From the sequence record PZ534534.1: DNA of 64,000 bases; one strand, given 5' to 3'. The notes below the pieces were generated by a model. The model saw only the letters and a program-made list of their open reading frames with translations. It was not told where the DNA came from and searched no databases. The DNA comes from a phage. Made by a program: the position numbers and the translations under genes. Every line of letters begins with the position of its first letter. Position 1 is the stretch's first letter. Below are positions 24,553-42,926 of the stretch, one piece after another.

Positions 24553-27150
24553 ATGCGTATTCAACACAACATTGATAACGTATTTCAGATGATTGAGGGG
24601 CACAGGAAGTGCCTCGATAACAACACAGGTATTACCAACACACCTACACAAAATAAGCTAGTAAACCCTGATGGTCTTATAGCTGCAGGGTGGGCAGGTA
24701 ATAAGATAAATAACGATTGGGCAATGCATGAGTCCCAAGCTGTGTTGATTCTGGGATACATTGAAGCATACAGGGCATCGAAAAGCGATTTCTATCTGGA
24801 TAGGGCAAAAGATGCTTGGGAAGCTTACAATAGTCATCTTCTGGGTGCATATGCCGTAGAAAGTAAAATGCAAAGATTGTCCCACTACCCTCTATCCACA
24901 GATGGGGTTCCATCACACGGTGGGTTTAAAGATGTGGTGGTGTCTTTTACCAACGGTAGAGGAAAAATCCCAGCTGGATCTCCGACATGGGGGGAATACC
25001 TGGACAAGGCATTCCAAGCGTATAACGGTGTGTTAGGAAGAAACACTGTAGACTCTGATGTTTACGGTGGCACAGATGCTAACCCAGATTGGACAACATC
25101 CGGATTAAGTTGGTGGGTTGAGTGGTACATAGCATGGGATGGTAACCGCTATTGGGCTAACGGTAGCATAGCCGACAGTGGTCATACGTCTGTAGAGTTC
25201 GGCACAATCCAATTACAAGATAAGGGTGTTACAGGCAGCCACAAGGTGACCTATTGTGTAAGATTACCTCAGGAGCAGGGTGGATCGGTGATACCTGCAG
25301 GATCCCCTGTAATTGTAAATCCTATAAACGTGGTTGCAGATAATCAGGCCCCAGAGTTGGACGGGGAAGAAATGTGGTGTGACGCTTGTTATCAACTCTA
25401 CACCTTGACAGGTGAGGAAAAGTATTACACCGCGTTTGAACAGTCTTACAACAAACTGCTTAATTTCAGTGATATAAACGCCTACGACAAATTGTTTAGA
25501 AAGACCACGTTGATTAAGGCACCGTTTACAGATGGTACTTGTCTTGTTGCAGGAACAGTTCCTGTCATGAGCAGGGACAGTGACGGGTATATCAATTTTA
25601 GAATGAACGCACGCCAGCCTTGCGAAATAATCCAAAAAGGGACTACATACAAAATAGGCAGAGATGCTGAAATTGTTATGAATTTCGGAGGAGAGGGGGT
25701 TCTGTTCCAGCCACATTTCATCCTTAATGATGGCAACAATAACAAAAAACAGTACAGGATAGGGGTTCCTTTTGGAAGGGCAGAGGTAACAGAAATAGTT
25801 GCCAAGGTTACCGATTTCGTAGAGGTGGTTGGTAAAGACGGTAATCCGTATCTCTTACCTAAAGAGGAAAACATTGCCGTAAGCGGTGGTGCTAGTGTTA
25901 GTATGCAGTATGATACCGACATTTACAACCACTCTGACAACTTCACCCGTTGTAATATAGCAAGAGGTAAAGTAACTTTCAATTTTGGAAGAGAGATTTC
26001 TTTAAACTCAGTAACTTATCGATCAGATGATGAGATGGTAAGGGTCAAATTTCTTGACAAAGACAGGTGGTTATGGTATGCTGATCTATATGCCACCAAT
26101 GGACAATGGATAACAGAAACTCTTACTCTAGGAGATTTCAAACTAGATCCGACACAACCTCATCACACCGAAGAAGAGATTAAACCTTTCTTTGCTAATC
26201 CTAAGGGACTAACCTCTGTAGATTTCAGTCTAAGCGACAGGCAGATAGGTAATGGCTTGTTTGATCTGTATTGCGTCAACACGCTGCCGCAATTCTATAT
26301 TGCAGATAGGGATGCTTATCTAATCTGGTTTAGCGTGTGGATGGCAAGCAAGACAGAATCAACCGCTAAGGTTGGCGATTGCTATGTCAGAAACTACAAG
26401 CAAGGTGCATACAGGCACACACCGGGTGTGTTCCCTGCCGGAAAGGTGATAGATAAGGAAAACTATCTCTTAGAGGAAAAGCCAAATTGGCCCTACCCTG
26501 GCATGCAATACCCAGCAGTCTACTGCATGGGTGCAGAAAACATAGATCGCCATAGATTGTCAAATACAATAGGCTTTCTGTATGACGCTCAAGTCTGGTA
26601 TAATAATACATTTAGGACAGAGGGTCCAGTTGCCTCACGTTATGTATGGCAGAGAGGCAATGAAGGGTTGACTGGTTGGTGGGAGATGGTAGATAACTCT
26701 AAGCTCCAGTCAAGATCTTTTGTTGCTGCGTGCCGCACAATATATGAGCTCAAGAAACATAAAGAACCTGTTGATGAAAGACTGTTCCTGTTCTGCCAGA
26801 AATGGGCATGGTTCCTCAACAGATTCCAGTCATCTCATTCAGGAAATCTGCCTACAGACTTTAACACCTCTGGGGGATACTCTTATCAAGACAGAGGGGA
26901 CAGGATGTGGGTGGTAGGTGAATGGCTTGCAGGTTGCTGCTGGCTAGGTCTGTGCGGGTATTCAGAGACAATACCTCAAATAGATATTGTTGTAGAAGCC
27001 TGTGTGAAGCTACTGCAAAAGCACCACTTCATTAATGGGGATAATATTTTAAACGGCTGCTGGGCAGTTTCTGATCCGGTTGGCTATCACTCTGGCGAAA
27101 TCCTTCGCGGTCTGGGTCTTTATGCTCAATACCGTGGATTGTACCTTTAA
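24553..27150 (+). CDS. large tail-associated protein, putative polysaccharide depolymerase (tailspike-like)
   Basis: 865 aa immediately following the anchor-domain protein; Trp/Tyr-rich sequence suggestive of a carbohydrate-active fold; function inferred, not demonstrated. Confidence 0.4.
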   Translation: MRIQHNIDNVFQMIEGHRKCLDNNTGITNTPTQNKLVNPDGLIAAGWAGNKINNDWAMHESQAVLILGYIEAYRASKSDFYLDRAKDAWEAYNSHLLGAYAVESKMQRLSHYPLSTDGVPSHGGFKDVVVSFTNGRGKIPAGSPTWGEYLDKAFQAYNGVLGRNTVDSDVYGGTDANPDWTTSGLSWWVEWYIAWDGNRYWANGSIADSGHTSVEFGTIQLQDKGVTGSHKVTYCVRLPQEQGGSVIPAGSPVIVNPINVVADNQAPELDGEEMWCDACYQLYTLTGEEKYYTAFEQSYNKLLNFSDINAYDKLFRKTTLIKAPFTDGTCLVAGTVPVMSRDSDGYINFRMNARQPCEIIQKGTTYKIGRDAEIVMNFGGEGVLFQPHFILNDGNNNKKQYRIGVPFGRAEVTEIVAKVTDFVEVVGKDGNPYLLPKEENIAVSGGASVSMQYDTDIYNHSDNFTRCNIARGKVTFNFGREISLNSVTYRSDDEMVRVKFLDKDRWLWYADLYATNGQWITETLTLGDFKLDPTQPHHTEEEIKPFFANPKGLTSVDFSLSDRQIGNGLFDLYCVNTLPQFYIADRDAYLIWFSVWMASKTESTAKVGDCYVRNYKQGAYRHTPGVFPAGKVIDKENYLLEEKPNWPYPGMQYPAVYCMGAENIDRHRLSNTIGFLYDAQVWYNNTFRTEGPVASRYVWQRGNEGLTGWWEMVDNSKLQSRSFVAACRTIYELKKHKEPVDERLFLFCQKWAWFLNRFQSSHSGNLPTDFNTSGGYSYQDRGDRMWVVGEWLAGCCWLGLCGYSETIPQIDIVVEACVKLLQKHHFINGDNILNGCWAVSDPVGYHSGEILRGLGLYAQYRGLYL

Positions 27151-27154
27151 CATA

Positions 27155-27175
27155 GGGGGCTGTTTGCCCCCTTTC
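27155..27175 (+). terminator. rho-independent terminator
   Basis: Hairpin GGGGGCtgtttGCCCCC followed by TTT. Confidence 0.55.
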
Positions 27176-27185
27176 AGGAGAAAGA

Positions 27186-30100
27186 ATGGCTGATATTAAA
27201 GTTGTCAGAATTGAATCTCTTCCTGCCACTACCGCAGTGACAGAGGATGATTACCTGGTTGTTCAACAACCAGACCTGACTCGTCGTGTAAAAATTGGCG
27301 ATGTTGTCCATGTGGATGGGACTGTTTCTCATGTAATCTCCTTTAAGGAAGGTGGTAAGTTAAACGGCCCAATGGATTTTGCCTACTTCGAAGAGGAAGA
27401 CCTCTACCTGCGTTGGAAAGGCGAATTTCCACACACTGTTCCTGCACTGTCTTCACCGTACGCTGATGGTGGGATTACTGACGCTGCATGGATGGTATAT
27501 ACTGACCCGTCCCTAAGGGAGGAGCTGGAATCTACCATTGGCGCATCTATGATCATGACAGCCGAAGGGCAGTCTGTCCAGGATGTAATGGATGTTACTG
27601 TTCAGACAGCTAACGATGCTAAAGCACTTGCACAGCGTGTAGATTTTGGTACAGTGCACACTGTAGGCGATGTTATTCACCTTGATAACTTTGTTGGCCC
27701 TGCAGTTATTGAAGAGGGAAGAACTACCAACTACCCTTCTGTAGCAGCTGGTGAAAAATTTCTGAACGGTGTGGTATCTCGTCGTGATACTACAACTGTT
27801 GATGGTATTTTCCGTGGCGCTACCACCGGAGCTATGTACACCATTGCAGTAACCAACGGTGTAGCAACAACAAAAAGAATAGCACTTCGTGATGAATTTA
27901 AACGCCTAGAGACAAATAACCCAACAAGAACAGTTATCCGTGCTGGAGATGATTTAAATACGGCAGGGTACTTGCAGCTTGATGCAACAGGCCGTTGGGG
28001 TATGTGGAACCAACAAACAGCTTCGTGGCAACCTCTTGCTATAGAGCAAGGCGGCACAGGGGCTAGAGATGCCGCTGGAGTCCGTATCAATATCGGTGCT
28101 TTCTATAAGCAGCGTGCTGCGCTTGATGCAAATTTCAATATCAATAATTTGACTGGTAATCAGGATGGTATATACTACCAGCCGATGACTGCTAATGCAA
28201 CTGAGGCAAATGGTTACCCTGCAGGTTCTGGTGCTGGTCACTTGATTGTTTGGCAGAACAATGCTAACGGCGGTACAGGGTGTCGTCAGGAATACTATCC
28301 ATTCTCTAACGTAGATGTTTGGTATTTGAGAACCTATCAGGCCAACACAAATCAGTGGACTGCATGGCAGCCGATGGTCAGACCTCGTAACGATGATACC
28401 TTCAGATCTCATATTGGCCTTGGTAAAAACAACTCGCCAGCCTTCGGGCACCTTTACTTAGCTCAATACTCGGGAGATGTTAAATCGGCCTCAGGTATTC
28501 TCCATGGAGATAAATATAATACTGACGGTGTCCTTGAGCATGGATATAGGATCTATTCTGAGGTAAGAAACGACAATAAGGCTTGGTTGACAATCCACCT
28601 GCACAAAGGTGCAAAAGGATCTGAAACTCATAGATATTTAGGTTTACGCGAAGACGGCGTGTTAGACTGCCCTAAATACATGCAGGTTGGGGATCTTACT
28701 GGTCAGCTGACAAACTGGGGACTTGGAGAGTGGATTCGTAGTTCAGGAGCAGAAAGAGGCTTCTGGGGGTCCAAGAAAGCCGCCAAGATGGTCGTCTGGG
28801 ATGGTGGGATGGATGAGTCCGGTAACGGCACTCTGGAATGGGGTGTTTATAACAACCGGAAGGCCAAGTGGGAACCTTTATCTCACGCCGCAGGTGGCAC
28901 TGGGGCTACAACCCTGGCAGATGCTCAGAATCTGTTCAAAGTTCCTATAGCTGCGGGTGTCAAAGATTTCTTAACACTGCCAAGAACTGCAGGGATGGAA
29001 GATGGGAAATACTACCCAATCATCGTTAGAACAGATCCGTACTATGCTCCAGCAACTGGTACTGATATTACCATAGTTACCAGATCGTCATCCGGCAGTG
29101 ACCCTATGAACTGCGCTACTCTGCAGTGCCATTACAGAACTGGGGGCTGGACAGACAGAGGAGACTCTTTCTACGGGGTAGTAAATTTCTACCAGAATGA
29201 AAAAGCACTTCTTGGGATGGTTGCTCCAACAAGGGGTAAACAAGAGTATGTTGCTTTCTATGTAGAGGCTCGTGCTTTCCCTGTCAGCGTATACGCAAGT
29301 AGAAATGTTGTAGAAGTGTTTACCAGAGAGCAAGATTACCAGGTCGGAGCTGTAACAGACAATCAGGACGGTGTTAAGTTTGTTGCGCCTCTCCAGTCAG
29401 CAGATTTGAATCTTGCTGTTCTTGGAGATAACAATACCAACACCAGACCTATTGTTGACTTCAAAGGTACCTCTGGGTTCTACACTGGCGGCGGCACACA
29501 GTGGCACTATATAGGCACTGCTGAACGCTATGCGGTGATGAGCAAAATGAACATGCCTAAAGTCGAACTATGGGCTGACGGTATTGACTATTTGTGCTAT
29601 GGCAGCCCTAGAAAGGCGTTATTCTCTAATGCAGGATTCCAGTGTGCATCAGATGGAACAGAGGATCTAACTAACGGTACGTTTACCTCTAAATGCGGTA
29701 ATGGTGCTGGCCTCAAAGGTCAGGCAGAGTTCAGATCTACCCCAGAAGCTGGTCAAGTTATTGTTCGCGATGTTGTGGGCACAGCTCACAGATTCTACAA
29801 TTTCAACAAAGACGGTACTTTCTCGGCCCCTGGTGGTTTTGTATGTCATACTGGTGGAGACTGGAACAACCAGTTTGGGTCTAATAACCCGTCAAAAATA
29901 ATGGCGGGTAATGTTAACGGACCAGAAGGCTCGATGGTTGTTGGTGGACTGTCTGTGGCGTTCTCTGGAAACTATGCTTTCCAAATGGCTGGACGCCTTG
30001 ATCAGTTATACACCAGATCTATCGAGGGTGGTAACCATAGAGCGTGGAACAAGGTCATACAACACAGAGGGCAAGGTCTGGGGATTAATGACCTTAACGA

Positions 30101-30986
30101 CTACAAAGGGGATAGGGAAGGTTTTTATCATCAGGAGGCCAATGCTCAAGCCACACCTGATAGAAACTACCCATGCTCCCGGGCAGGTACGCTTATCGTG
30201 TACAGGAACTACGCCAATGTTCCAGAGAGTTGCGTACAGGAGTATATATCATATCTTGGGGAAAAATTCCTGCGTTATGGAACAACAATAGGTAGTGTTT
30301 TCACATGGGGACCTTGGCAGCAGCTTGGTGGTAAGGGAATTACTCTTAAAACCGCAGGTTCCAATCTTGACCCAGAGTTCATGATACATACAGGTGGTGG
30401 GACCGATGTTACCAACACTTCCAACATGCCTTCTAATACAGGCAGAATGTACTACTGGGGTAATGGCGCAGACAGGAAGAACGTGCTTGAGTTTCAGATA
30501 AACGACAACGCTACATCTGCCAGTTGGGTATGGCATTGTGGTGCTAAGACAGATGAGGCCAAGTCAAGGTACTTTGCTGTCAACGGCGTAGTAGAGTGCA
30601 CCGCTGTCAGCCAGAGCTCTGACCGTGACCTGAAGGATAACATAGAGGTTATTCCTAACGCGTTGGAAGCTATCCGTAAGATGAAAGGCTATACCTACAC
30701 TCTAAAAGAGAATGGTATGCCTCACGCGGGGGTAATTGCTCAAGAGGTTATGGAAGCATTGCCTGAAGCGGTTGGTTCTTTCGTGAAAAGGAAAGAGGTT
30801 CCTGGTCCTACTCAAGATGGTATTCCTCTGATGACCGAGGAAAGATTCTATAATGTTGACTATGCGGCTGTAACAGGATTGCTTGTTCAGGTTTGCAGAG
30901 AACAAGATGATAAAATAACCGCCCTTGAGGAGCAGGTTAAAAAATTGACAGAGGTTGTTACTGGGTTGCAAGAGAAACTGAAGTAA
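27186..30986 (+). CDS. long tail fibre with C-terminal intramolecular chaperone (peptidase S74) domain
   Basis: C-terminal block SDRDLKDNIEV...GYTYTLK...GVIAQEV is the hallmark of the self-cleaving chaperone domain of endosialidases and T5 L-shaped fibres; N-terminal anchor domain shared with the 23883 protein. Confidence 0.8.
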   Translation: MADIKVVRIESLPATTAVTEDDYLVVQQPDLTRRVKIGDVVHVDGTVSHVISFKEGGKLNGPMDFAYFEEEDLYLRWKGEFPHTVPALSSPYADGGITDAAWMVYTDPSLREELESTIGASMIMTAEGQSVQDVMDVTVQTANDAKALAQRVDFGTVHTVGDVIHLDNFVGPAVIEEGRTTNYPSVAAGEKFLNGVVSRRDTTTVDGIFRGATTGAMYTIAVTNGVATTKRIALRDEFKRLETNNPTRTVIRAGDDLNTAGYLQLDATGRWGMWNQQTASWQPLAIEQGGTGARDAAGVRINIGAFYKQRAALDANFNINNLTGNQDGIYYQPMTANATEANGYPAGSGAGHLIVWQNNANGGTGCRQEYYPFSNVDVWYLRTYQANTNQWTAWQPMVRPRNDDTFRSHIGLGKNNSPAFGHLYLAQYSGDVKSASGILHGDKYNTDGVLEHGYRIYSEVRNDNKAWLTIHLHKGAKGSETHRYLGLREDGVLDCPKYMQVGDLTGQLTNWGLGEWIRSSGAERGFWGSKKAAKMVVWDGGMDESGNGTLEWGVYNNRKAKWEPLSHAAGGTGATTLADAQNLFKVPIAAGVKDFLTLPRTAGMEDGKYYPIIVRTDPYYAPATGTDITIVTRSSSGSDPMNCATLQCHYRTGGWTDRGDSFYGVVNFYQNEKALLGMVAPTRGKQEYVAFYVEARAFPVSVYASRNVVEVFTREQDYQVGAVTDNQDGVKFVAPLQSADLNLAVLGDNNTNTRPIVDFKGTSGFYTGGGTQWHYIGTAERYAVMSKMNMPKVELWADGIDYLCYGSPRKALFSNAGFQCASDGTEDLTNGTFTSKCGNGAGLKGQAEFRSTPEAGQVIVRDVVGTAHRFYNFNKDGTFSAPGGFVCHTGGDWNNQFGSNNPSKIMAGNVNGPEGSMVVGGLSVAFSGNYAFQMAGRLDQLYTRSIEGGNHRAWNKVIQHRGQGLGINDLNDYKGDREGFYHQEANAQATPDRNYPCSRAGTLIVYRNYANVPESCVQEYISYLGEKFLRYGTTIGSVFTWGPWQQLGGKGITLKTAGSNLDPEFMIHTGGGTDVTNTSNMPSNTGRMYYWGNGADRKNVLEFQINDNATSASWVWHCGAKTDEAKSRYFAVNGVVECTAVSQSSDRDLKDNIEVIPNALEAIRKMKGYTYTLKENGMPHAGVIAQEVMEALPEAVGSFVKRKEVPGPTQDGIPLMTEERFYNVDYAAVTGLLVQVCREQDDKITALEEQVKKLTEVVTGLQEKLK

Positions 30987-30993
30987 CTGTTTT

Positions 30994-31019
30994 GCCCTCG
31001 CTTCGGCGGGGGCTTTTTG
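30994..31019 (+). terminator. rho-independent terminator (CGCTTCGGCG family)
   Basis: Hairpin CCCTCGCttcgGCGGGGG with UUCG-type loop followed by CTTTTTGTTTG. Confidence 0.65.
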
Positions 31020-31025
31020 TTTGTA

Positions 31026-31054
31026 TTGCGTATTAACTTAAAATCTGGTAAAAT
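31026..31054 (+). promoter_or_regulatory. sigma70-like promoter (TTGCGT-17-TAAAAT, TGGTAAAATA family)
   Basis: -10 TAAAAT preceded by TGG; -35 weaker. Confidence 0.4.
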
Positions 31055-31085
31055 AGCTATCATGATTGTTTAACCCGGAGGCACA

Positions 31086-31676
31086 ATGTTTTTATGGGAA
31101 AGGCCTAGATATCTTCCAGATATTAGATTGGAGCTGCTGGCAGATATTGTTACGTTTAAAAGTCCATTTACAGGTAAAACGCAAAAAGTAACCTATGCCA
31201 CACCTAACTGGAAAGGCACTTTGACGGTCTCCAATATCAGCGAGTCACAGTTGCTAGAGCTTAAGAGCTTTGTTGATCAGGTGTATAAAGATGGAAACAT
31301 CTTTCTTATTAAAACTTACGGTCACTCAGTAACAACTAATGAGCCAATCGCCCTTGGGCCTACTGGTAACGACGATTTTTTGAAGACGGTCGGATGGGAG
31401 CCAAACAGAGACATAGCTAGAGCTGGGGATAAAATATCTGTCAATGATGAATTGAAAGTGGTAACAGCTCCAGTGCGTAGTGATGGTGTTGGGTCTGCTG
31501 TTATAGGCATATCTCCAAGACTTAGAAAGCCTATTGCCGCAGGGGACACCATGAAGATAATAACTCAATCTCCGAAGGGTAGGTTTCATATCAGAGATAT
31601 TTATAAAATTAAGCAAAAAGTCGATGCTATGCAAAAAGGTGATAATATAGTTATCAACTTCTTTGAGGATTTCTAA
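31086..31676 (+). CDS. minor tail protein (tail-tip complex, first gene of J-type module)
   Basis: 196 aa, first of three small genes preceding the J-like gene. Confidence 0.45.
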   Translation: MFLWERPRYLPDIRLELLADIVTFKSPFTGKTQKVTYATPNWKGTLTVSNISESQLLELKSFVDQVYKDGNIFLIKTYGHSVTTNEPIALGPTGNDDFLKTVGWEPNRDIARAGDKISVNDELKVVTAPVRSDGVGSAVIGISPRLRKPIAAGDTMKIITQSPKGRFHIRDIYKIKQKVDAMQKGDNIVINFFEDF

Positions 31677-31677
31677 G

Positions 31678-32229
31678 ATGATCAGAGCGCCATTAGATAA
31701 TTTATTTCTTGAAAAGCTGGAGCTTGATGGTGTTGAGATCTTAATTGCTGCAAAGCTGGAGCTACCGACAGGAACTGTCAGGGTGTGCTCAGGCACTGGT
31801 GTTGTAGTAATTGAGGGGCAACATTTTATAGGGATAGGTGGATCAGCAACGTTAACTGCTGTGTCTGAGAAAGATGCCACCAACTTCGGATCTGTGGTAG
31901 CGACATTGAACGGGTTTGATCCTAAGTATGTGGGTGATCTGCTGAAGACGGAGTATTCTGGTTGTCGTGCCACGTTGTACATTACCGCTATGGAGAATGG
32001 TCTGCCTGTTACAACTAATGGCTTGTTTGACGGCCTTATAACAGATATGGCTATTCAGACAGGCGAGAATAGTGCTTTGTCCATATCCATCTCCTCCATC
32101 TTCAACAGCTGGTTAAGAGGTTTTCCTTATCGGTACACGGAGGAAAGCCACAGCTCAAGAAACGATAACGACAGATTTTTTAAATATGTGGATCAGGTGG
32201 CGAGCCGCCCGATCATTTGGGAGGTTTAA
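31678..32229 (+). CDS. minor tail protein (lambda L-like position)
   Basis: ATG at 31678 with GAGGAT RBS (ORF-track TTG start at 31663). Confidence 0.45.
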   Translation: MIRAPLDNLFLEKLELDGVEILIAAKLELPTGTVRVCSGTGVVVIEGQHFIGIGGSATLTAVSEKDATNFGSVVATLNGFDPKYVGDLLKTEYSGCRATLYITAMENGLPVTTNGLFDGLITDMAIQTGENSALSISISSIFNSWLRGFPYRYTEESHSSRNDNDRFFKYVDQVASRPIIWEV

Positions 32230-32654
32230 TGAGCACACATCCTCGTTTAGTGGATTGGCAAGAAAGATTGTGGAAAGTGTTTGACGAAGAGGCCACCATA
32301 CCTTTTGAATGGGGATTCCACGATTGTTGCACCTTTGCGGCTAAGTGTGTTGATGCCCAATACGGAACAGATTTTCTTTCTAACTTTGAAGGAACGTATA
32401 AAACAGAGTTGGAAAGCAAAAGATGGTGCATGCTTCGTTTCAAAACCACACACCTGCCTACTATTTTTGATCTCTTTATGACTCGGCTGGATACTCCTAA
32501 ACAGGCTCAGCGTGGAGATATTGTCATTTTCGAAGGTCTGAACGGGCTCACCGCTGGTGTGTTCTGGAACAACCAGATTTGGGCTAAAGGTGATAAAGGG
32601 GTCTTTATGTTCGACATGAAAGATTCTATCGTTGTTGATGTCTGGAGGTATTAA
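32229..32654 (+). CDS. minor tail protein, putative NlpC/P60-like (lambda K-like position)
   Basis: ATG at 32229 with GGGAGG RBS; conserved Cys/His (FHDCCTFAAKC) consistent with a papain-like peptidase domain. Confidence 0.45.
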   Translation: MSTHPRLVDWQERLWKVFDEEATIPFEWGFHDCCTFAAKCVDAQYGTDFLSNFEGTYKTELESKRWCMLRFKTTHLPTIFDLFMTRLDTPKQAQRGDIVIFEGLNGLTAGVFWNNQIWAKGDKGVFMFDMKDSIVVDVWRY

Positions 32655-35600
32655 TGCCAATTGCAATGATTGATAACATCGTTGCTTCTGCAAGATCTTC
32701 AAGTTATGACTGGAACGCATCCAAGGCAGCTCTGGCTGACAGCCTGAACACTGTTACCACCAGAACTCTGGATAAGATTTTCGAGGGAAACAAATCTTAC
32801 AGAAGTCAGCAAGATAGACAAAAGCTTCTCAGATCTTCTGCTGCACCTTGCTCTGTAGTGTATGGGAAGACACGTACATCTGGATTGCTTGCGTTTTTGG
32901 AGCAGGACAGGGACAGAACCCTTCATTGTGCTATTGTTCTTGCCAATCACCCTCTGGAAGGTATAGAAGATATACTTATCGACGGTAATCCTATTTCTTC
33001 GTATGGGGATTTGGTATCGTGGGAGCTACATAACGATAGAAAAACCTCTGATCCTTTCATGGGCACACACTGCCCATCGTGGTCACCGGACATGATAGGT
33101 AGAGGGATCAGTTGGCTACGGGTCAGCTTTAGGTTTGACCCTAACAAGTTTCCTTTTGGGTTGCCAAACGTCACACTCGTCAAGGTTGGTAAAAAATGCT
33201 ATGATCCTCGCACTAGTAAAGAGGTGTATACCAATAACGCTGCCTTGGTGATTCTGGACTATTTAAGAACGTACCTTAAATGTCCTGACGAAACCATCAA
33301 CTGGGAGTCCTTCAAGGAGGCTGCCAACATATGCGACGAGGCTGTAAGAAACGCAGACGGAACCAGCGAGCGTCGTTACACAATTAATGGCGAGTTCGAT
33401 ATGGATGAGGCCCCAGCAAGTATTATGGCAGAAATGCTGAAAGCTTGTGGCGCAGATCTCAGCTATGTAGCTGGTAAGTATGGTTTGCTGGTTGGTGCAT
33501 ACTATGGCCCGGCAACAATGACACTGAGTGAGGATTGTGTCTGTGGTGAGGTCAAGATCTACCCGGAAGCCTCATTTGACAAAAGATCCAACACAATAAC
33601 CGGCAGATTCACTAGTCCGACCAAAGGGTATTCTGAAACAGATTTTCCATCAGTGTTTGTCCCAGAGTGGATAGAGAAGGATGGAGAAAGAAAGATAATC
33701 GATATAGACTATCGCTTTGTTACCAGCCCTTATCAAGCTCAGCGTGTTTCTGCAATCTTCTTAAGACGCGCGAGAGCTGGCAGGATTATTGAAGTCACCT
33801 GCAATATGCGAGGTTTTAAATTTAAACCTGGTCGTTACGTTACAATGAACCTTCCAAGTATAGGTATAGTGGGCCAAGAAATGAGGGTTCTTGAATGGGA
33901 GTTTACCAAAAAGGGTGGTGTCAAGGTAAAACTTCGTCAAGATGCTAAAGAGTGGAATGATGCCACAGGGCAACTTCCGGATTCTGGCAATGTAGATATT
34001 CCGATATCTCCATCTGGTGTAGCTCAACCGCAAAACTTCAGATACTCCGTTCTCCAAGCTGGGGAAGTAACTCACGGTGTTTTGGCTTGGGACAACGTTG
34101 GGACTTACGCTCAAAATATTGTGCAGGTAAGAAAGAACGGAGAGATTGTTTGGACAGCACAGACAGTTGAGCAGTTTGTCAGAGTAGAAGGTTTGACCAA
34201 AGGGTCATACACAGCAACCGTGGTTGCAACATCTTATAAAGGTGGTGTATCTCCAGAAGCGTATTGTGAGTTTAACATTCAGGCACCTGAAGCTCCGGTT
34301 TCTGTAGAGGTTAAGCAAGGATACTTTGCTATCACCTTGATTCCGCATAGTAGGGATTTAGCAAGTGTTAGCACCCAGTATGACTTTTGGACATCCGGTA
34401 TGACAAGGTTGCCAGACACCAGTGATGCAACCGTTACTTCAAACGCCACCCGTATGGGTGTTGGTTCAACTTGGACATCTGAAGGTCTGCAGAACGATAA
34501 GGTTTATTATTGGTATATTCGAACCACAAACGCTTTTGGTAGTTCTCAGTTTGTAGAATGCGCTGCACGCTGCTACACCTCTATTGAGGATTTGATGCCT
34601 CAGATAGATGCTGAATTCAAAAAGACAGAAACTTATAAAGAGTTGATGAGCACTTTGGATTCCTCTATTGAAGAGGTTGAAAATCGTGTCACAGAACTTA
34701 ACAGGTACATGGATGGTAGGGTAGATGAAGCGTTCCAGCAACTTGGGGACAGAATAGGTGCGGTAGTTACAGAAACAACTCAGAAGTTTGAAGATGTCAA
34801 TGGTAACATTACAGCGCTGGATAGGAAACTTGTTGCTGCACAGAACAAATTCACCAACGATCTGAACACTGAAAGTGGCAGACTGGCATCTCTAATCGAG
34901 ACAACCAATAAAGCAACTACTGATCTTCTGAACAAAAAGACAGAGGCTTTAGATGAGAAATTGGTTGCCGCCAAAGGTGAGCTGGTAGAGCAGATAGGGG
35001 GAGTTGAGAGCGGGTATTTAGCCGGAGATAAAACTCTGGATGGTAAGATCAATACTCAGAGAACAGAACTTGACGCAAGCATCTTGAGCACTAACCAAGC
35101 CACTGTAGATCTTTTGAACAGGACATCTGAAACTCTGGATCAAAAGATTAGTCAGACAAACGCGACGGTATCTAAAAACTATACCACCCTTGACGGCAAG
35201 ATAACTACCGCAAAAACTGACCTCAACACCTTGATTGCCAATACCAACAAGGCCACCACTGACTTGTTGAATCAGAAAACATCTGCACTGTCAGAGCAAA
35301 TAACTTCTGCACGTGGGGAGATCTCTACCAACAAGCAAGCGATTGATGCTTTGGATGGAAAACTGACCTCCACAAAAACAGCGCTGGATGCTACAATTTC
35401 CGATACCAACAAAGCCACTGTGGACCTTATCAACGGCACAGCGTCAGCTATTCGTCAAGAACTTGCTGTCGCTAAGCAGGAGATCATCAATGATGTTGGG
35501 GATGTATCTGAGCTTAGGGCTGCAGTAGCTACAACATCTAAGGCTGTAACCGACTTAGAGGGTAAAGTAAATGCTCAATGGGGCACAAAAATACAGGTAG

Positions 35601-36493
35601 ACTCCGCAGGGAATAAATATGTTGCAGGTATCCAGTTGGGGATGGAAGGGTCTGGGGGCCAAGTTCAATCCTACTTCATGGTTAGTGCAAACAACTTTGC
35701 GGTATACAACCCCGGAAATGGAACAGCAACCCTTGCTTTCGCAATCAAGAACAACCAAGCGTTCTTGAAAGACGCTTTTATAGAGAATGGCACGATCTCT
35801 TCTGCCAAGATCGCACAAGAAATTTCGTCAAACAACTACGATGGCAACGGGTACCATAAATACGGTTGGTATATTAACAAGAACGGGCACGCCCAATTTA
35901 TGGATGTATGGGTGAAAGGCAACATCAACGCCAGTTCTGGTAACTTCACAGGGGCAGTTAACGCCACCAGTGGTACCTTCCGTGGGGATGTTTATGCCAA
36001 TAACGGTAGCTTTAGGGGCACCATAGATGCAACCGGAGGTACCTTCCGTGGGCGTGTAGAGGCTTCTGTTATTCGTGCTAACCAGTTCGAAGGTGCAATA
36101 GTTGCACACAAGACCTACGGTGACTGTCCTCCAGTATACAACTCTCAGCAGCAGGTTTGCCGTTGGAGATGGAGATACGTGGATAACGTTCAAGGACAAG
36201 GTAAGAACGTAACATTCTTCTTTAAGCTTAACGGAACTCTAGGAGGCTCCCAGTTGAATGTGTGGATAGCGGGGCACCAGTTGCTCGCTGGCAAGAAGTA
36301 TGGTAACGACAACGATGGTATGTGTGCAGTCGGGATAACAGGGCTGGGTGAACAGACCATAGACATTATTGTTGAAATTTACACACGCTGGTCCACCTCA
36401 GCTATAACAGGTGTTACAATATCCTGTCCTACTGTGATAGTAAGTCGTTCAAACTCTAGCTTCCAGGGACCTTGGAACGAGTCTCACGACTAA
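32654..36493 (+). CDS. host specificity / central tail fibre protein (lambda J-like)
   Basis: 1279 aa; blocks GYFAITLIPH, YYWYIRTTNAFGSSQFVE and WGTKIQVDSAGNKYVAGIQLGMEG...SANNFAVYNP match lambda J blocks recalled from memory; long heptad-like repeat region. Confidence 0.8.
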   Translation: MPIAMIDNIVASARSSSYDWNASKAALADSLNTVTTRTLDKIFEGNKSYRSQQDRQKLLRSSAAPCSVVYGKTRTSGLLAFLEQDRDRTLHCAIVLANHPLEGIEDILIDGNPISSYGDLVSWELHNDRKTSDPFMGTHCPSWSPDMIGRGISWLRVSFRFDPNKFPFGLPNVTLVKVGKKCYDPRTSKEVYTNNAALVILDYLRTYLKCPDETINWESFKEAANICDEAVRNADGTSERRYTINGEFDMDEAPASIMAEMLKACGADLSYVAGKYGLLVGAYYGPATMTLSEDCVCGEVKIYPEASFDKRSNTITGRFTSPTKGYSETDFPSVFVPEWIEKDGERKIIDIDYRFVTSPYQAQRVSAIFLRRARAGRIIEVTCNMRGFKFKPGRYVTMNLPSIGIVGQEMRVLEWEFTKKGGVKVKLRQDAKEWNDATGQLPDSGNVDIPISPSGVAQPQNFRYSVLQAGEVTHGVLAWDNVGTYAQNIVQVRKNGEIVWTAQTVEQFVRVEGLTKGSYTATVVATSYKGGVSPEAYCEFNIQAPEAPVSVEVKQGYFAITLIPHSRDLASVSTQYDFWTSGMTRLPDTSDATVTSNATRMGVGSTWTSEGLQNDKVYYWYIRTTNAFGSSQFVECAARCYTSIEDLMPQIDAEFKKTETYKELMSTLDSSIEEVENRVTELNRYMDGRVDEAFQQLGDRIGAVVTETTQKFEDVNGNITALDRKLVAAQNKFTNDLNTESGRLASLIETTNKATTDLLNKKTEALDEKLVAAKGELVEQIGGVESGYLAGDKTLDGKINTQRTELDASILSTNQATVDLLNRTSETLDQKISQTNATVSKNYTTLDGKITTAKTDLNTLIANTNKATTDLLNQKTSALSEQITSARGEISTNKQAIDALDGKLTSTKTALDATISDTNKATVDLINGTASAIRQELAVAKQEIINDVGDVSELRAAVATTSKAVTDLEGKVNAQWGTKIQVDSAGNKYVAGIQLGMEGSGGQVQSYFMVSANNFAVYNPGNGTATLAFAIKNNQAFLKDAFIENGTISSAKIAQEISSNNYDGNGYHKYGWYINKNGHAQFMDVWVKGNINASSGNFTGAVNATSGTFRGDVYANNGSFRGTIDATGGTFRGRVEASVIRANQFEGAIVAHKTYGDCPPVYNSQQQVCRWRWRYVDNVQGQGKNVTFFFKLNGTLGGSQLNVWIAGHQLLAGKKYGNDNDGMCAVGITGLGEQTIDIIVEIYTRWSTSAITGVTISCPTVIVSRSNSSFQGPWNESHD

Positions 36494-36502
36494 CCTTTAA
36501 AG

Positions 36503-36528
36503 CCCCGCTTCGGCGGGGTTTATTTTTA
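36503..36528 (+). terminator. rho-independent terminator (CGCTTCGGCG family)
   Basis: Perfect hairpin CCCCGCttcgGCGGGG followed by TTTATTTTTAT. Confidence 0.75.
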
Positions 36529-36536
36529 TGCTCAGA

Positions 36537-36565
36537 TTGACTATTGTTACAAAATTTGGTAAAAT
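36537..36565 (+). promoter_or_regulatory. sigma70-like promoter (TTGACT-17-TAAAAT, TGGTAAAATA family)
   Basis: Near-consensus hexamers, 17-nt spacer. Confidence 0.55.
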
Positions 36566-36598
36566 ACCTTGTAGAGATTTTCATACCGGAGGAGTGAC

Positions 36599-38089
36599 GT
36601 GGCTAAGTATGGATTGACAGAGGCTGGTTTCGTTATACCAACCCTAAATGACCTAATCGTTGAAACTAAGCAAAGCCTGATCCGTGCTTTTGGCGAAAAC
36701 TTCAACGTACAGAGTAACTCCGTTGCAGATAAGCTGACCACTATCTTCAACGAGCGAGAGTATCAACTTATTCTTATGGCAGCATCTGTATACGCATCAC
36801 AGACGCTGTATGGGGCAGAAGGTATTTACCTAGATGAGCTTCTTGGAAGACAAGGTATTTACCGAAGAGGCCGTTCTAAATCATCAGGTACCTGCCAGTT
36901 GACAATCAACACAACTGTGCCGTACAATATGATTTATGATTCCAAAACTTATACGCTGGACAGTGGCAACTTTGTTCTTAGCAACGATGTGCAAGTAGCA
37001 GGGAATCTTATTGCTCACAGAATAAATGCCCCAGACCTAAGGATTGGTAAATACAACTTTCAAATTACCAACCAGACAGATGGAAGTATCAAAACAAAAA
37101 GTCTGGTTTTAACAGATAAGTCTCTGGACTCTTCTGATCTGCCAAGCTTTTACGGAGAGATTAAGCAGTTCATTGTCGATAATACAACCCTGTTGAACGA
37201 CGATTTGATTCAGATAGATATGTTGACAGGAACGTTGTGGATAGGGTACAATTCGAATCTTGATCAAGTTGGACTTAATAGTAGAGTAGATTTCAGAGTA
37301 TCCCCGATTGTAGGGGAAAGAACTATCACACTGGATGTTATCGCTAACGAGGCGGGTGAGTTGTCAAGAGAGGCAGAAACCGTGACAACAATGTCACCTA
37401 CTCCCAGTGGATTTATCAAGCTTACCAACCGAGAAAGATTCAATGAGGGCAGGGATGTTGAGAAAGACTCAGAGTATCGCTTAAGAGCTTCCAGCACAAA
37501 ACAGTTAACATCTAAGGCTACCCGTCCTGCAATCCTTAGCGCTGTAAGCGAGGTGAAAGGTGTTGAGAAAGTGAGAGTGTTCTCCAATAACACCGATAAA
37601 ACTGATGCTAAAGGTATACCCCCTTACAAGTTCCAAGTGGTTGTGTTTGGTGGTGCAACGGAAGACATTTGCCAAGCACTTTACCAAACTATAGCCTGTA
37701 CGAACAGGACTTATGGTAATATTTTCTACGATGTCACTACATCTGACGGTCAAACTGAAAGAATTTATTACTCCAAGGCAAACACCTACCGCCTAGATGT
37801 AAGAATTACCTACTCCGGTGCTGCGCTTTCTACAACCGAAAAAGATGCCATTATAGAGGCTCTTTTGCAGGTTGTTAACGGACTGGATGTTGCAGATACG
37901 TTGTATAATATCCAATTGGTAGGTGCTGCATCTGCTGCTGTGTCAATAGGCAGATTTAATAGGCTGGTAATTCAAGTTAAATCCGTAGGAGCTTCTGATG
38001 AAGCTTACACTACAAACGATATTGTTGCGAACATGACCGAGGTGTTTGACCTCGACGAAAGTAATATAACTTTCCAACAAACTATTTAA
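36599..38089 (+). CDS. baseplate J-like protein (Mu gp47 / P2 gpJ family, putative)
   Basis: 496 aa; N-terminal block ...LYGAEGIYLDELLGRQGIYRRGRSKSSG... resembles the conserved baseplate-J signature; GTG start with GGAGGAG RBS. Confidence 0.6.
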   Translation: MAKYGLTEAGFVIPTLNDLIVETKQSLIRAFGENFNVQSNSVADKLTTIFNEREYQLILMAASVYASQTLYGAEGIYLDELLGRQGIYRRGRSKSSGTCQLTINTTVPYNMIYDSKTYTLDSGNFVLSNDVQVAGNLIAHRINAPDLRIGKYNFQITNQTDGSIKTKSLVLTDKSLDSSDLPSFYGEIKQFIVDNTTLLNDDLIQIDMLTGTLWIGYNSNLDQVGLNSRVDFRVSPIVGERTITLDVIANEAGELSREAETVTTMSPTPSGFIKLTNRERFNEGRDVEKDSEYRLRASSTKQLTSKATRPAILSAVSEVKGVEKVRVFSNNTDKTDAKGIPPYKFQVVVFGGATEDICQALYQTIACTNRTYGNIFYDVTTSDGQTERIYYSKANTYRLDVRITYSGAALSTTEKDAIIEALLQVVNGLDVADTLYNIQLVGAASAAVSIGRFNRLVIQVKSVGASDEAYTTNDIVANMTEVFDLDESNITFQQTI

Positions 38090-38100
38090 GGCGGCGAGAT

Positions 38101-38787
38101 ATGGCAGAGATTAAGTCGGATGTTAACCACATCCACACTCTGCCAGATTTTGTTCAGGGAGGTCTTGACTACCTGCCTGGAGATTTTCTGGCTGAGAAGG
38201 TTAATTTAGTCACATTCTTAACCGTATACCTTAAAAGGTTGGAGGATGTTGATAAGATGCTGGTAGGTTTGGCTGAAGGAAGATTGCTTAACAATGCCAG
38301 CGGAAGATACCTTGACGAAGTTGGTAATCAACTTGGTATTCTTAGGAATGGACTTTCAGATGCTGATTTTCGTGCCACACTAATTATTCAGCAGGCCGCA
38401 GCATCAAGGGGCGGGACTCGCGAAGATGTCATCTCCACCTTGCGACAATTGTTCGGAAGAGACAATTTCGATACGTGGAAAGGAGACAACTTCAGGTTTG
38501 ACATAAATATTAGAAAAACTTGCTTTGACATATTGCAGTCTATCGATCAGATCTTAGATATGCTACCATTACCTTGTCATTTGCGTCTTACAGAATCGCA
38601 AGGGCAAGCTTTTGGTTTTGAAGGGGACTCTACAGCTCTTGGCTTCGGATCAGTGTGGGAAGAAAACCAATTCGGAGTTGGTGGGCTGGCTACTTTGCTG
38701 TATGTTCCTGACGTAAGACCTGATTGGGACACCACAACCATTTATTGTGAAAGTATTACAGTAAACGCAACTAGACAGGAGGGTTAA
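38101..38787 (+). CDS. baseplate wedge protein (P2 gpI / Mu gp48-like, putative)
   Basis: 228 aa immediately after baseplate J-like gene, conserved gene order. Confidence 0.45.
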   Translation: MAEIKSDVNHIHTLPDFVQGGLDYLPGDFLAEKVNLVTFLTVYLKRLEDVDKMLVGLAEGRLLNNASGRYLDEVGNQLGILRNGLSDADFRATLIIQQAAASRGGTREDVISTLRQLFGRDNFDTWKGDNFRFDINIRKTCFDILQSIDQILDMLPLPCHLRLTESQGQAFGFEGDSTALGFGSVWEENQFGVGGLATLLYVPDVRPDWDTTTIYCESITVNATRQEG

Positions 38788-40859
38788 TGGCAACAGCTAT
38801 TTTTAAACCTTACCGTGATTACTCTACAATGGCTGCACGGTTTCATTACCGCACAGTTCAGGATACTGCCGTTCCTGGTAGGGATTATAATCATGTTGAG
38901 GGTGATGTAACTATCCCAATTGGGGCAACCAGTATTGAGATCCCAGTGGAAATTGTTGACAAATTACCCAACAGGTTGCCAAGAAGCTTCTTTATGGAGT
39001 TTTCATCAAAATCTCAAGGGGTGATGATTGGAACACAAAGGGCGAAATGTACAATAGTTTCAGATGAGAATCTTGACAGGATATCTTGGGATACTGTTGA
39101 GGAGAGAATGTTTCACCCAAGGTATTGGGTTACAACTACTCAGCAGACTGAAAGTACCTGTATTGTTGCAGATAACAACTGTTGTATTAACCGTTTAGTG
39201 TCAAGAACATATGGAGGTATGGCTGGGTGCATTTGGGAAACAGTTGACAAGTATGACCATTTCGGTATTGGGTTTGATGATCACTATGAGATGAGAAACA
39301 CCAAGCTTTGGTTCAGAATGTCAATAACCAATGCCAGCAACTTCTCCACCCCTGAAAAGATGATTATGACTGTAGACCTTGTTGATGGCACAATCATCTA
39401 TGTTCCTTTAGCTCAATATGCTGTCAGCATCTCAGAGGATAAGAATGTTGCAGAGATTCATATTGATTTCGAGGACTGCGTCGGGATGGATCAGAACAAC
39501 AACATGATGGGTGTTGATCCTCGACAGGTGAGAAGGATTTTAATACCGCTTATGCCTAAAGACTGGGTAAGTAATAGCACAGACCCGAGAACGGAAAATG
39601 TAGAGTGTGAGTTGCGCCTAGATCTGCTCCAGCCAGACACAGGCTGGAAAATGATGCAACTTAACAATATTCAGGTTAAAGAGCACGACGTTGGGATCTG
39701 CACCGCATATGACGATATGTGGAACGTATCTCCTTTAAGGGTGTTGAACAATATCAAGCGTCTGGGCTATACCGGAACCATAAACCATTATGTTGGTATG
39801 AGTCATTATTATGACTACACATGGTCAGGAACCCAATGGTCTATAAACAGAACAGGGGCGCTAAACGCTGCAGCTTATAAATGGCATGATGATTTTATGT
39901 ACAATGCCAAACGACATAACTTCGACGTTATGCAATCTGTAAGTTTTGAGCTTTTCAGCGATGCCTGCCCGTTGGAATGGACCCAAAGAGACTGGAACGA
40001 TAACTACGCTAAAACAGGGTATACACCCTGTAGCTACCTCCTGTCTCCAACCATTGAAGAGGGTATGAATTTCCTTACTGCAGTATTTAAGAATTTTGCA
40101 TCAGCCGCTATGAGAAACAACCTGCCAGTGATTATGCAGGTTGGTGAACCGTGGTGGTGGTACAATACCGATACTCGTAGACCTTGTATTTATGATTACC
40201 CTACAAAGCAGGCGTTTTATGATGAGACAGGTGAGTATGCATTAGATATTGGGACTATTGACGATCCTAAAACTGGCGGTGTTTACGACAAGTATGTAGC
40301 ATTTTGTCGTGGTAAGCTTGGCGCTCGTATTGCGGCCATTTCAAAGGCAATAAAGGCACACGCTGCATCAGCTCAGATGACAGCTCTGCTGTTTTTCCCA
40401 ACCATTATGGAAACAGAGCTTACGCAAAAGCTGAACCTTGCTGACCAATATAAAAAAGAAGCAGGTGCTCTTGATTTCTTCTGCACCGAGTGCTACGATT
40501 GGGTGATGCAGGGAGGTATTGAAAAGGCAAAAGAGTCTGTAAACATACCTATCGTTAAGTTAGGTTGGCAACCGTCTGAAATACAATACCTTGCAGGGTT
40601 CGTTCCTAGTAAAGAGCTTGCTCCGGTATATGGCTACGACCCAACCAGGAATTACCAAGAATTTTTATGGAGATGTATCTGCGGAAACATGGCAACCATA
40701 GAGTATAGATACCCTGAGGTAAAACAGTATGTGTGGGCATACCCGCAAGTAATGTCTGACAGCATCACTGTTACAGCCAGAGATTCTACCGTGCTTCATA
40801 TGGGGCAGGTTGCTCTGAAAGGGTATGTAGAAGATGTTGTCCCTCCAGACTTCTCATAA
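38787..40859 (+). CDS. tail fibre/spike protein with N-terminal Calx-beta-like domain and putative glycosidase-like C-terminal domain
   Basis: N-terminal pattern DYNHVEGDVTIPIGATSIEIPVEIVDKLPN resembles Calx-beta; Trp-rich C-terminal region (QVGEPWWWYNTD). Confidence 0.4.
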   Translation: MATAIFKPYRDYSTMAARFHYRTVQDTAVPGRDYNHVEGDVTIPIGATSIEIPVEIVDKLPNRLPRSFFMEFSSKSQGVMIGTQRAKCTIVSDENLDRISWDTVEERMFHPRYWVTTTQQTESTCIVADNNCCINRLVSRTYGGMAGCIWETVDKYDHFGIGFDDHYEMRNTKLWFRMSITNASNFSTPEKMIMTVDLVDGTIIYVPLAQYAVSISEDKNVAEIHIDFEDCVGMDQNNNMMGVDPRQVRRILIPLMPKDWVSNSTDPRTENVECELRLDLLQPDTGWKMMQLNNIQVKEHDVGICTAYDDMWNVSPLRVLNNIKRLGYTGTINHYVGMSHYYDYTWSGTQWSINRTGALNAAAYKWHDDFMYNAKRHNFDVMQSVSFELFSDACPLEWTQRDWNDNYAKTGYTPCSYLLSPTIEEGMNFLTAVFKNFASAAMRNNLPVIMQVGEPWWWYNTDTRRPCIYDYPTKQAFYDETGEYALDIGTIDDPKTGGVYDKYVAFCRGKLGARIAAISKAIKAHAASAQMTALLFFPTIMETELTQKLNLADQYKKEAGALDFFCTECYDWVMQGGIEKAKESVNIPIVKLGWQPSEIQYLAGFVPSKELAPVYGYDPTRNYQEFLWRCICGNMATIEYRYPEVKQYVWAYPQVMSDSITVTARDSTVLHMGQVALKGYVEDVVPPDFS

Positions 40860-42896: not shown

Positions 42897-42926
42897 AGTC
42901 CTAAGGAATTTTCTCAGGAGAACGTG

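Follow-up and report, generated by a model that had tools for sequence, protein, structure and literature searches.

Predicted glycosidase-like folds in the conserved, probable adsorption locus of an rV5-like phage

Identity of the locus

How many tail proteins of a phage contact the host surface, and do any of them act on its polysaccharides as enzymes? The question was raised by the genes between nucleotides 24553 and 40859 of a 64,000-nucleotide stretch of phage DNA (sequence record PZ534534.1; the whole stretch is called the window below). An earlier note had taken two of the encoded proteins, of 865 and 690 residues, for enzymatic spikes and had counted them among at least eight receptor-binding candidates. 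This analysis determined which genes are present, the predicted folds and the homologies of their products, how they are co-distributed and which residues are conserved.

The window belongs to a Vequintavirus (rV5-like) myophage with approximately 96% identity to more than 100 sequenced isolates. The 16.3-kb stretch itself is collinear with more than 100 Vequintavirus genomes at 94-97% nucleotide identity; 110 records cover at least 80% of it, and identity is 95-99% in 96 matching records. Protein identity to WalterGehring and rV5_ev147 is 92-100% gene by gene. The region is thus the standard, previously described cluster of tail-fibre genes found in E. coli phages of the rV5-like type. All ORFs named in the earlier note are real, on the plus strand and correctly placed, and its count of eight equals that of the BASEL annotation (six lateral and two short tail fibres). 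Schwarzer 2012 and Maffei 2021 have published this repertoire as a "nanosized Swiss army knife", which means that the finding was known beforehand; the description "unusually broad" is fair relative to phages generally, but within the genus such a repertoire is the invariant published norm. Sugar-enzyme folds for the two flagged proteins were likewise proposed by annotators years earlier, and the basic finding adds nothing to published annotation.

Taken as a whole, the region is reasonably likely to be a conserved multivalent adsorption locus of Vequintavirus, in which hub, spike and wedge genes would form a standard contractile-tail baseplate bearing several different appendages. Few broad-host-range coliphages are isolated as often as the rV5-like phages, which are in use against O157:H7; the roles of the individual appendages therefore matter for host-range engineering.

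Fibre and baseplate genes

All genes described in this section lie on the plus strand. The S74-chaperone fibre of the earlier note was recognized as a 1266-residue lateral fibre (27186..30986) with a Tail_spike_N anchor and a C-terminal Peptidase_S74 intramolecular chaperone. It is 95% identical to its relatives, versus at least 99% for its neighbors, and strong allelic variation has been reported at this fibre (Maffei 2021). Three small genes (196, 188 and 145 residues; 31086..32654) encode a distal-tail-protein-like protein, a tail protein and a DUF6950 protein (phrog_1302 'distal tail protein' and phrog_2048 in PHROGs; DUF6950 in Pfam), and are absent from the phi92-like relative. They precede the gene for the J-like fibre, a 1279-residue lambda-J-like protein (rV5 gp37; 32654..36493) that carries the Pfam domains Ig_J, Ig_J_second and Phage_Tail_Tip, falls in phrog_31 'central tail fiber J' and has been detected in virions (PMC3606486).

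The baseplate wedge pair (36599..38787), a 496-residue Baseplate_J-like protein and a 228-residue protein (Pfam Baseplate_J; phrog_6 and phrog_4056), is orthologous to phi92 gp145/gp146, with synteny to PaulScherrer. Cryo-EM of phi92 assigned gp145-gp146 as the wedge (PMC13450770), and the pair encoded here would serve as the platform for fibre attachment.

Downstream lie the two paralogous fibres, short tail fibres of 346 and 348 residues (40872-41912 and 42924-43970; both phrog_4465) that share 43% identity from end to end. Between their genes are a 104-residue ORF and the gene for a fibre-assembly chaperone (41927-42511; Pfam Caudo_TAP). The phi92 short-fibre ortholog, gp147, is fibre III. 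Published genetics identify GlcI, in the outer core of LPS, as the terminal receptor, and binding of this outer-core glucose by the two short fibres would trigger contraction. The 581-residue fibre (44258..46003) is homologous over its N-terminal 325 residues to the phiTE long tail fibre (phmmer E 9e-77 to 9cuy_g), which docks on the wedge and the sheath initiator (PMC11972413). The giant protein of 1875 residues (46054..51681; phrog_15684 and phrog_11922 'tail protein'), with an Ig-like Pfam domain, Big_2, near its C-terminus, is a moderately variable candidate fibre (92-96% identity to relatives) that has no counterpart in the phi92-like relative. Strain-specific glycan recognition would be provided by the variable 1266-residue, J-like and 1875-residue fibres.

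The 690-residue protein

The 690-residue protein (38787..40859, plus strand; rV5 gp34/phi92 gp142 family) was modelled with a pLDDT of 94 as a Calx-beta-like sandwich (residues 1-107, nt 38787-39107), an NCTSP_N sandwich (residues 108-298, nt 39108-39680) and a glycoside-hydrolase-like TIM barrel (residues 299-662, nt 39681-40772). It matches TIM-barrel_NCTSP (PF23845) at 269.8 bits and NCTSP_N (PF23844) at 48.6 bits, each against a Pfam cut-off of 27, and is a member of the Pfam NCTSP family typified by N4 gp65/gp64; in structure it also resembles the N4 gp64 chain that has been solved. The Calx-beta-like N-terminus claimed in the earlier note was modelled as a beta-sandwich and matched the profile with E 7e-6, but at 26.5 bits it falls just below the cut-off of 27. 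The rV5 paper assigns Calx-beta to gp34 (PMC3606486), and Calx-beta chains in the PDB matched this N-terminus only weakly, with E values of 0.19-0.58. The C-terminal domain, described as Trp-rich, is so only mildly (3.3% Trp and 7.4% Tyr over residues 299-690, versus 2.1% Trp in other tail proteins).

Four motifs of the barrel, YDD, HYxGMSHY, GEPWWW and ExYDW, are invariant in 48 of 48 aligned, diverse relatives; GMSHY is encoded at nt 39795-39809. E454 and E568, both invariant, are placed where strands 449-453 and 565-568 end, although DSSP gives nine candidate strands and their numbering is ambiguous. The best structural neighbors of the barrel are all active carbohydrate enzymes; by sequence, it matched none of the glycosidase families in Pfam and NCBIfam.

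In the literature, NGR exopolysaccharide is the genetically defined primary receptor of the genus; wecB and nfrB, that is NGR, are required by Vequintavirus, Justusliebigvirus and N4 (PMC8669472). The gp142 family has been named as the NGR-binding protein on the basis of comparative genomics and of host genetics at the level of the genus (wecB, nfrA, nfrB). In N4, the gp66 appendages are currently credited with binding NGR, and gp34 is not among the proteins named as found in virions in the text of the rV5 paper (PMC3606486). GMSHY and GEPWWW also occur in alphaproteobacterial relatives that are fused to a distal-tail-protein domain, and mark the fold and its pocket generally rather than NGR specificity. 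The 'predictive' GMSHY is thus a family-wide fold signature, and the labels "NGR-specific GMSHY motif" and "deacetylase" are both questionable. The barrel of the NGR-binding candidate resembles hydrolases and not deacetylases, and the protein is related to the N4 sheath by homology, not by convergence. We infer its attachment geometry and any catalysis: the two beta-sandwich domains probably anchor the protein to the baseplate periphery, and the pocket of the TIM barrel would bind, and possibly cleave, NGR exopolysaccharide.

The 865-residue protein and its adaptor

For the 865-residue protein (24553..27150, plus strand; rV5 gp42/phi92 gp141 family), a six-hairpin glycosidase superfamily fold, an (alpha/alpha)6 toroid, is predicted from a model of moderate confidence (pLDDT 64, six-sequence alignment). 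Helix pairs occupy approximately residues 59-95, 269-306 and 654-860, and beta-rich inserts approximately residues 96-268 and 307-653. As with the barrel, the best structural neighbors are all active carbohydrate enzymes. Both flagged proteins were therefore modelled with a carbohydrate-active fold, the absence of which the earlier note had named among what would refute it. The protein itself had no match in Pfam and matched no curated glycosidase family in Pfam or NCBIfam; the family profile matched six-hairpin enzymes weakly (E 0.003-0.04), and the Kaonashi homolog scored 19.6 bits against Glyco_hydro_76, below the cut-off of 25.9. E60, D270 and E849 are conserved across the family, and in the rV5 version several family-conserved aromatic residues are replaced (W274M, W643K, Y651M and W715N). 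No characterised viral relative of the family was found.

Immediately upstream is the gene for a 222-residue adaptor (23883..24551, plus strand; rV5 gp43/phi92 gp140 family), which has a Tail_spike_N N-terminus (Pfam, E 2e-10) and a conserved C-terminal docking domain of approximately 100 residues that corresponds to no Pfam family. This domain shares 34-43% identity with proteins whose genes lie directly upstream of the 865-family gene in phi92-like, T7-like and Rosemountvirus phages. It was found in 526 phage records, compared to 525 for the 865 family, and the two genes are adjacent wherever the coordinates of both are given. In the T7-like podophage Kaonashi the adaptor carries the tail-anchoring N-domain of T7 gp17, which places the 865-family protein distally. 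Published work supplies the presence of both gp42 and gp43 in rV5 virions (PMC3606486). The family belongs to an obligate adaptor-cargo pair, which is a concrete candidate for fibre density left unassigned in phi92. The adaptor would plug into the baseplate or fibre network through Tail_spike_N, and its C-terminal domain would hold the 865-residue protein as the distal part of the two-gene module. The protein would then offer a surface glycan its glycosidase-like (alpha/alpha)6 cleft, which has CBM-like sandwiches on its flanks.

These observations can be joined in a single reading, which we advance tentatively and, with all its parts taken together, at somewhat less than even chances. The 222- and 865-residue genes would constitute a mobile module of adaptor and six-hairpin glycosidase receptor protein, which would pass between the platforms of myophages, jumbo phages and podophages with a change in nothing but the N-terminal anchor of the adaptor. 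If true, the module would represent a class of glycan-processing appendage that is carried on virions, is widespread and has no structural kinship with beta-helix tailspikes. In phi92-type virions, the fibre densities that the 2026 cryo-EM left unassigned, its screen having been confined to models of fibre shape, would be explained by this module and the TIM-barrel protein of the gp142 type. As a companion point, a TIM barrel completed in trans would join the two halves of the N4 sheath heterodimer, with gp65 contributing beta1-alpha1-beta2 and gp64 the remainder.

Catalysis and alternative explanations

In the literature consulted we found no report of enzymatic activity for either the 690- or the 865-residue family, and both proteins might be non-catalytic, their folds providing only pockets that bind glycans in the manner of lectins, or scaffolding within the fibre network. 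N4 gp64, the closest solved relative of the 690-residue protein, is described purely as a structural minor sheath subunit (PMC13434306), and both proteins are at least 99% conserved within the genus, like structural parts; the lack of curated GH matches and the aromatic residues missing from the rV5 865-residue protein agree with this. However, two Glu, two Asp and two His are absolutely invariant at strand ends of the barrel among relatives that are approximately 28% identical, a pattern that fits catalysis better than mere binding, and the conserved acidic residues of the 865 family and the enzymatic nature of all the best structural neighbors also argue against it. We consider a purely non-catalytic role rather unlikely.

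Two more specific proposals fare much worse. The 690-residue protein might be a glycan deacetylase that moves along NGR by acetyl removal, like the G7C tailspike gp63.1. This agrees with the BASEL annotation ('glycosidase and deacetylase domains'), a label also used in Sellner 2021, and with a Phyre2 match to poly-GlcNAc deacetylase (Maffei 2021). The fold match, however, was to the hydrolase domain (GH153) of PgaB/BpsB (6au1_B) and not to NodB/CE4, a stand-alone CE4 structure was absent among the top 60 structural matches, and we regard this activity as very improbable. No more credible is the view of both proteins as classical trimeric tailspike depolymerases that act on capsule or O-antigen and set host range, although many records carry tail-fibre and tailspike annotations and some Vequintavirus isolates use group 4 capsule in place of NGR. 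The "enzymatic spikes" of the earlier note are enzyme-like in fold, but neither model contains a beta-helix or beta-propeller and the beta-rich parts are sandwich-type domains, so that the folds themselves, one a TIM barrel and the other an (alpha/alpha)6 toroid, disfavor a classical depolymerase. Moreover, the near-invariance of both proteins extends across isolates that differ in host range, with variation falling instead in the 1266-residue, J-like and 1875-residue fibres, and Tail_spike_N is found on the 222- and 1266-residue proteins and on neither of these two.

Comparison with known systems

The phi92-like phage PaulScherrer shares orthologs of the adaptor, the 865- and 690-residue proteins, the wedge pair, and the short fibre with its chaperone; a 2017 review gives phi92 Gp141 and Gp142 as 'Glycosidase'. 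The 865-like and 690-like genes of phi92-like phages adjoin and are followed by the endosialidase slot, whereas in the window 11.6 kb lies between them, with the S74 fibre, the J-like cassette and the wedge genes. This J-like cassette has no counterpart in the phi92-like genome.

The non-contractile sheath heterodimer gp65-gp64 of N4 (PDB 9lc0, 9yf4 and 9yf5) has NCTSP_N and TIM-barrel modules, the motifs GMSHY, GEPWWW and E-x-YDW, and a host requirement for NGR in common with the 690-residue protein. The barrel is a single chain in the latter but is divided between two polypeptides in N4, and the 690-residue protein is homologous, as one chain, to gp64 together with the N-terminal part of gp65. 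On the barrel profile, gp65 residues 374-416 align with positions 4-46 and gp64 residues 109-407 with positions 60-347. N4 gp65 has approximately 950 additional residues, lacking in the 690-residue protein, that bind NfrA and the tail plug, and the platforms differ, being a podophage tail tube in N4 and a contractile baseplate in the window phage.

Among known enzymes, the barrels of PgaB/BpsB (C-terminal GH153 domain), GH29, GH42, GH5, GH114/191, GH20, GH18 and Cwp19 are approximately 7-12% identical to that of the 690-residue protein, with no family match at the sequence level. Six-hairpin enzymes (GH48, GH105, GH88, GH76, GH8 and the AGE family) are 9-13% identical to the 865-residue protein; unlike theirs, its toroid is split by two large beta-rich inserts, and its family is phage-borne and invariably accompanied by an adaptor gene.

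Branched tailspike systems with adaptors include the K1-5/K1E/SP6 adaptors, G7C gp66 and the CBA120 TSPs. As in systems of the K1-5/G7C type, a small protein whose N-terminal anchor is specific to the platform would hold a second protein that faces the receptor. In contrast to those systems, the cargo here is a six-hairpin protein instead of a beta-helix tailspike, and docking is assigned to a distinct domain of approximately 100 residues.

Gene content of the fibre locus

In a megablast search, window 24553-40859 (16.3 kb) matched 126 phage records; for 110 of these the coverage was at least 80%, mostly at 95-99% identity. All the matching records are rV5-like Vequintavirus genomes, for example WalterGehring, slur16, FV3 and rV5. 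Upstream of the fibre genes are those for the sheath, tube, tape measure, tube initiator, hub, central spike and sheath initiator, which places the locus in the module for baseplate and fibres of a coliphage with a contractile tail. Some 20 GenBank records of the MG0656xx series (e.g. MG065662, MG065647 and MG065690) are entered as 'Campylobacter phage' with Campylobacter jejuni as the stated host, and are roughly 99% identical at the protein level to rV5-like or phi92-like phages of E. coli; they look like mislabelled or co-isolated coliphages. Elsewhere in the window, seven tRNA genes (Arg, Tyr, Ser, Thr, Met and Pro) are clustered at 1852-2664; among them, a 99-nt tRNA-like call at 2321-2419 has an odd four-base anticodon.

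An earlier note had counted at least eight receptor-binding candidates in this locus, and all eight ORFs were recovered at the stated positions and lengths. The fibre said to carry an S74 chaperone is a 1266-aa protein with Tail_spike_N and Peptidase_S74 chaperone domains, and lambda-J domains are present in the 1279-aa protein that had been called J-like. The two ~347-aa fibres described as paralogs are 43% identical to each other, a relationship published earlier for rV5 gp30 and gp33 (PMC3606486). Over its N-terminal 325 residues the 581-aa protein matches the long tail fibre of phiTE (E 9e-77), which is modelled on the wedge, and the giant 1875-aa protein contains an Ig-like Big_2 domain. 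Two features ascribed to the 690-aa protein were less distinct: its Calx-beta-like N-terminus is borderline (26.5 bits, against a cut-off of 27), and the tryptophan enrichment of its C-terminal domain is only mild (3.3% vs 2.1%). Within this myophage module there is also a siphophage-style block (window 31086-36493) encoding a distal-tail-protein-like protein of 196 aa, a tail protein of 188 aa, a DUF6950 protein of 145 aa and the lambda-J-like protein of 1279 aa; a counterpart is absent from the phi92-like relative compared.

Predicted structures of the 690-aa and 865-aa proteins

The 690-aa protein (window 38787-40859, + strand), of the rV5 gp34/phi92 gp142 family, has Pfam matches to NCTSP_N (E 7e-13) and TIM-barrel_NCTSP (E 4e-80), and no curated glycoside hydrolase family in Pfam or NCBIfam was matched by its sequence. 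Its AlphaFold2 model, built on a 48-sequence alignment with a mean identity of 28%, is highly confident (pLDDT 94, pTM 0.91). Invariant in all 48 members are Y308-D-D, H334-Y-x-G-M-S-H (the H-Y following GMS being only nearly so), S386-x-E388, Q451-x-G-E454-P-W-W-W and E568-x-Y-D-W. These motifs are located at or just past the C-terminal ends of the predicted barrel strands, the usual active-site face of TIM barrels. In the model, this pattern argues for a functional pocket that would be compatible with catalysis.

In the annotation of Maffei et al., this family is a lateral tail fibre that has 'glycosidase and deacetylase domains', with a link to N4 gp64. A reading of the 690-aa protein as a CE4 deacetylase was rejected: the structure it matches is the GH153 hydrolase domain of PgaB/BpsB on its own (6au1_B), and there was no stand-alone CE4 deacetylase among the top 60 structural matches. 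The deacetylase label is thus not supported by the predicted fold. The widely copied 'glycan deacetylase' label (MZ501111, MZ501100) appears to have been taken from the full-length PgaB name; it is the C-terminal GH153 domain of PgaB that matches, not its CE4 domain.

The 865-aa protein (window 24553-27150, + strand), of the rV5 gp42/phi92 gp141 family, had no sequence match in Pfam, NCBIfam or, by phmmer, the PDB. A word-index homolog search yielded six proteins, and a profile re-search returned the same six; because this alignment is shallow, the six-hairpin toroid model is only moderately confident (pLDDT 64, pTM 0.49). The family profile weakly matches cellobiose 2-epimerases, GH76 and a CBM11 module (E 0.003-0.04), and a podophage homolog has a Glyco_hydro_76 match under threshold. 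A BFVD search found only uncharacterised viral tail-fibre relatives. By exhaustive HMMER search the family comprises 366 representative clusters; of 56 diverse members, at least 50 share each of nine residues (E60, Q62, D270, R341, D502, Q652, Q680, R721 and E849), all of which are kept in the window protein. The conserved acidic and polar residues are thus retained, but near-invariant aromatics of the family are lost in the rV5 lineage (W274M, W643K, Y651M and W715N), so that its cleft departs from the family norm. Such replacements suggest that the sugar-binding cleft of the Vequintavirus six-hairpin protein is remodelled or in part degenerate. The rV5 ortholog, gp42, was detected in virions (PMC3606486). 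Predicted tryptic peptides of gp34 were absent from the text of the rV5 mass spectrometry supplement, as were the gp42 control peptides, though gp42 is reported as detected.

A conserved candidate adaptor upstream of the six-hairpin protein

Directly upstream of the 865-aa gene, a 222-aa protein (window 23883-24551, + strand) has a Tail_spike_N anchoring domain followed by a C-terminal domain of ~100 residues. Small proteins with 34-43% identity to the latter are encoded immediately before the 865-family gene in three other lineages (phi92-like phages, a T7-like podophage and a Rosemountvirus). Adaptor and 865-family gene together occupy 10643-13992, 1051-4645 and 6336-9916 of phage loci L003, L005 and L006, respectively. 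The N-terminal anchor varies among Tail_spike_N, the T7 gp17 tail-attachment domain (as in the podophage) and a coiled coil; the conserved C-terminal domain has no Pfam family. Across all phage genomes, 526 records have this docking domain and 525 have a member of the 865 family, with near-identical genus counts, and the two are adjacent in all records listing both coordinates. This is strong comparative evidence for a predicted adaptor-cargo pair, with the six-hairpin protein facing the receptor. In the phi92 cryo-EM study (PMC13450770), fibre II was left unassigned and only fibre-shaped models were screened; gp141 and gp142 are not mentioned anywhere in it. It should be noted that the wedge stoichiometry in that study is inconsistent, with one gp145 and two gp146 conformers in the text and gp145-i, gp145-o and gp146 in the legend.

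Binding or catalysis

Both proteins had been proposed to be enzymatic spikes. Carbohydrate-active folds were indeed predicted for each, and there is good support for a role facing the receptor, but the spike architecture was wrong: a beta-helix tailspike is rejected by the models, a TIM barrel and a six-hairpin toroid. The observation is confirmed and its interpretation partly supported. A 2017 review (PMC5380687), which cites Schwarzer 2012, already lists phi92 Gp141 and Gp142 as 'Glycosidase'. Catalysis, as suggested by the folds, is putative and unproven; a serious alternative is that the proteins serve only in binding or as structural parts. Sellner et al. (PMC8669472) found that Vequintavirinae, phi92-like phages and N4 require wecB and nfrB, and proposed that a shared protein binds the NGR glycan; a 2026 preprint assigns NGR binding to the phi92 gp142 family. 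An RB-TnSeq study confirmed that the primary receptor of the genus is NGR and the terminal receptor LPS outer-core GlcI, with group 4 capsule replacing NGR for some isolates.

In a comparison with two Vequintavirus genomes, the 865-aa and 690-aa proteins were at least 99% identical to their orthologs; they also have phi92-like orthologs, at 35% and 42% identity, respectively. They thus resemble proteins that recognise conserved glycans more than they do strain-specific depolymerases. Variation in the locus falls on the 1266-aa, J-like and 1875-aa proteins. The phi92-like genome lacks both the J-like cassette and the giant protein, in agreement with the alignment of Maffei et al. The general idea, including the repertoire of eight proteins, is already in the literature and is ordinary for the genus. 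Only the putative adaptor-cargo cassette and the apparent division of the N4 barrel might be new.

Apparent division of the barrel in N4-like phages

The 2026 preprint stresses a conserved GMSHY motif (residues 337-341 of the 690-aa protein, window 39795-39809), whose k-mer was reported there as predictive of NGR specificity and taken as a sign of convergent evolution. G-M-S is kept in all 48 diverse relatives and H-Y nearly always; among these relatives are alphaproteobacterial proteins that carry the module as a fusion with a DUF2460 distal-tail-protein domain. What the motif marks is therefore the barrel and not NGR specificity. Convergence between N4 and the myophages was rejected, as NCTSP_N and the entire barrel are homologous.

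The sole solved sequence relative of the 690-aa protein is N4 gp64 (E 2e-24), the minor subunit of the non-contractile sheath, which forms a heterodimer with the receptor-binding protein gp65 (cryo-EM, PMC13434306). The term 'TIM barrel' is absent from the text of the N4 paper searched for it. In N4-like gp65, residues 58-130 match NCTSP_N, and residues 374-416, with GMSHY, correspond to TIM-barrel_NCTSP profile positions 4-46 (43 barrel positions). Residues 109 to ~407-409 of gp64, with GEPWWW and EDYDW, correspond to positions 60-347. The two matches are complementary in profile coordinates, without overlap. In Escherichia phage vB_Eco_Jura (L004, N4-like), the first portion of the profile is found in gp65 (2532-6680) and the rest in gp64 (6713-7966). 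The two sheath subunits thus appear to share the barrel between them, which suggests that the N4 heterodimer completes one barrel in trans; such a division would explain why the heterodimer is obligate. In the rV5-type 690-aa protein the barrel is contained in one chain (window 39681-40772), whereas in N4-like phages the same profile extends over two polypeptides.
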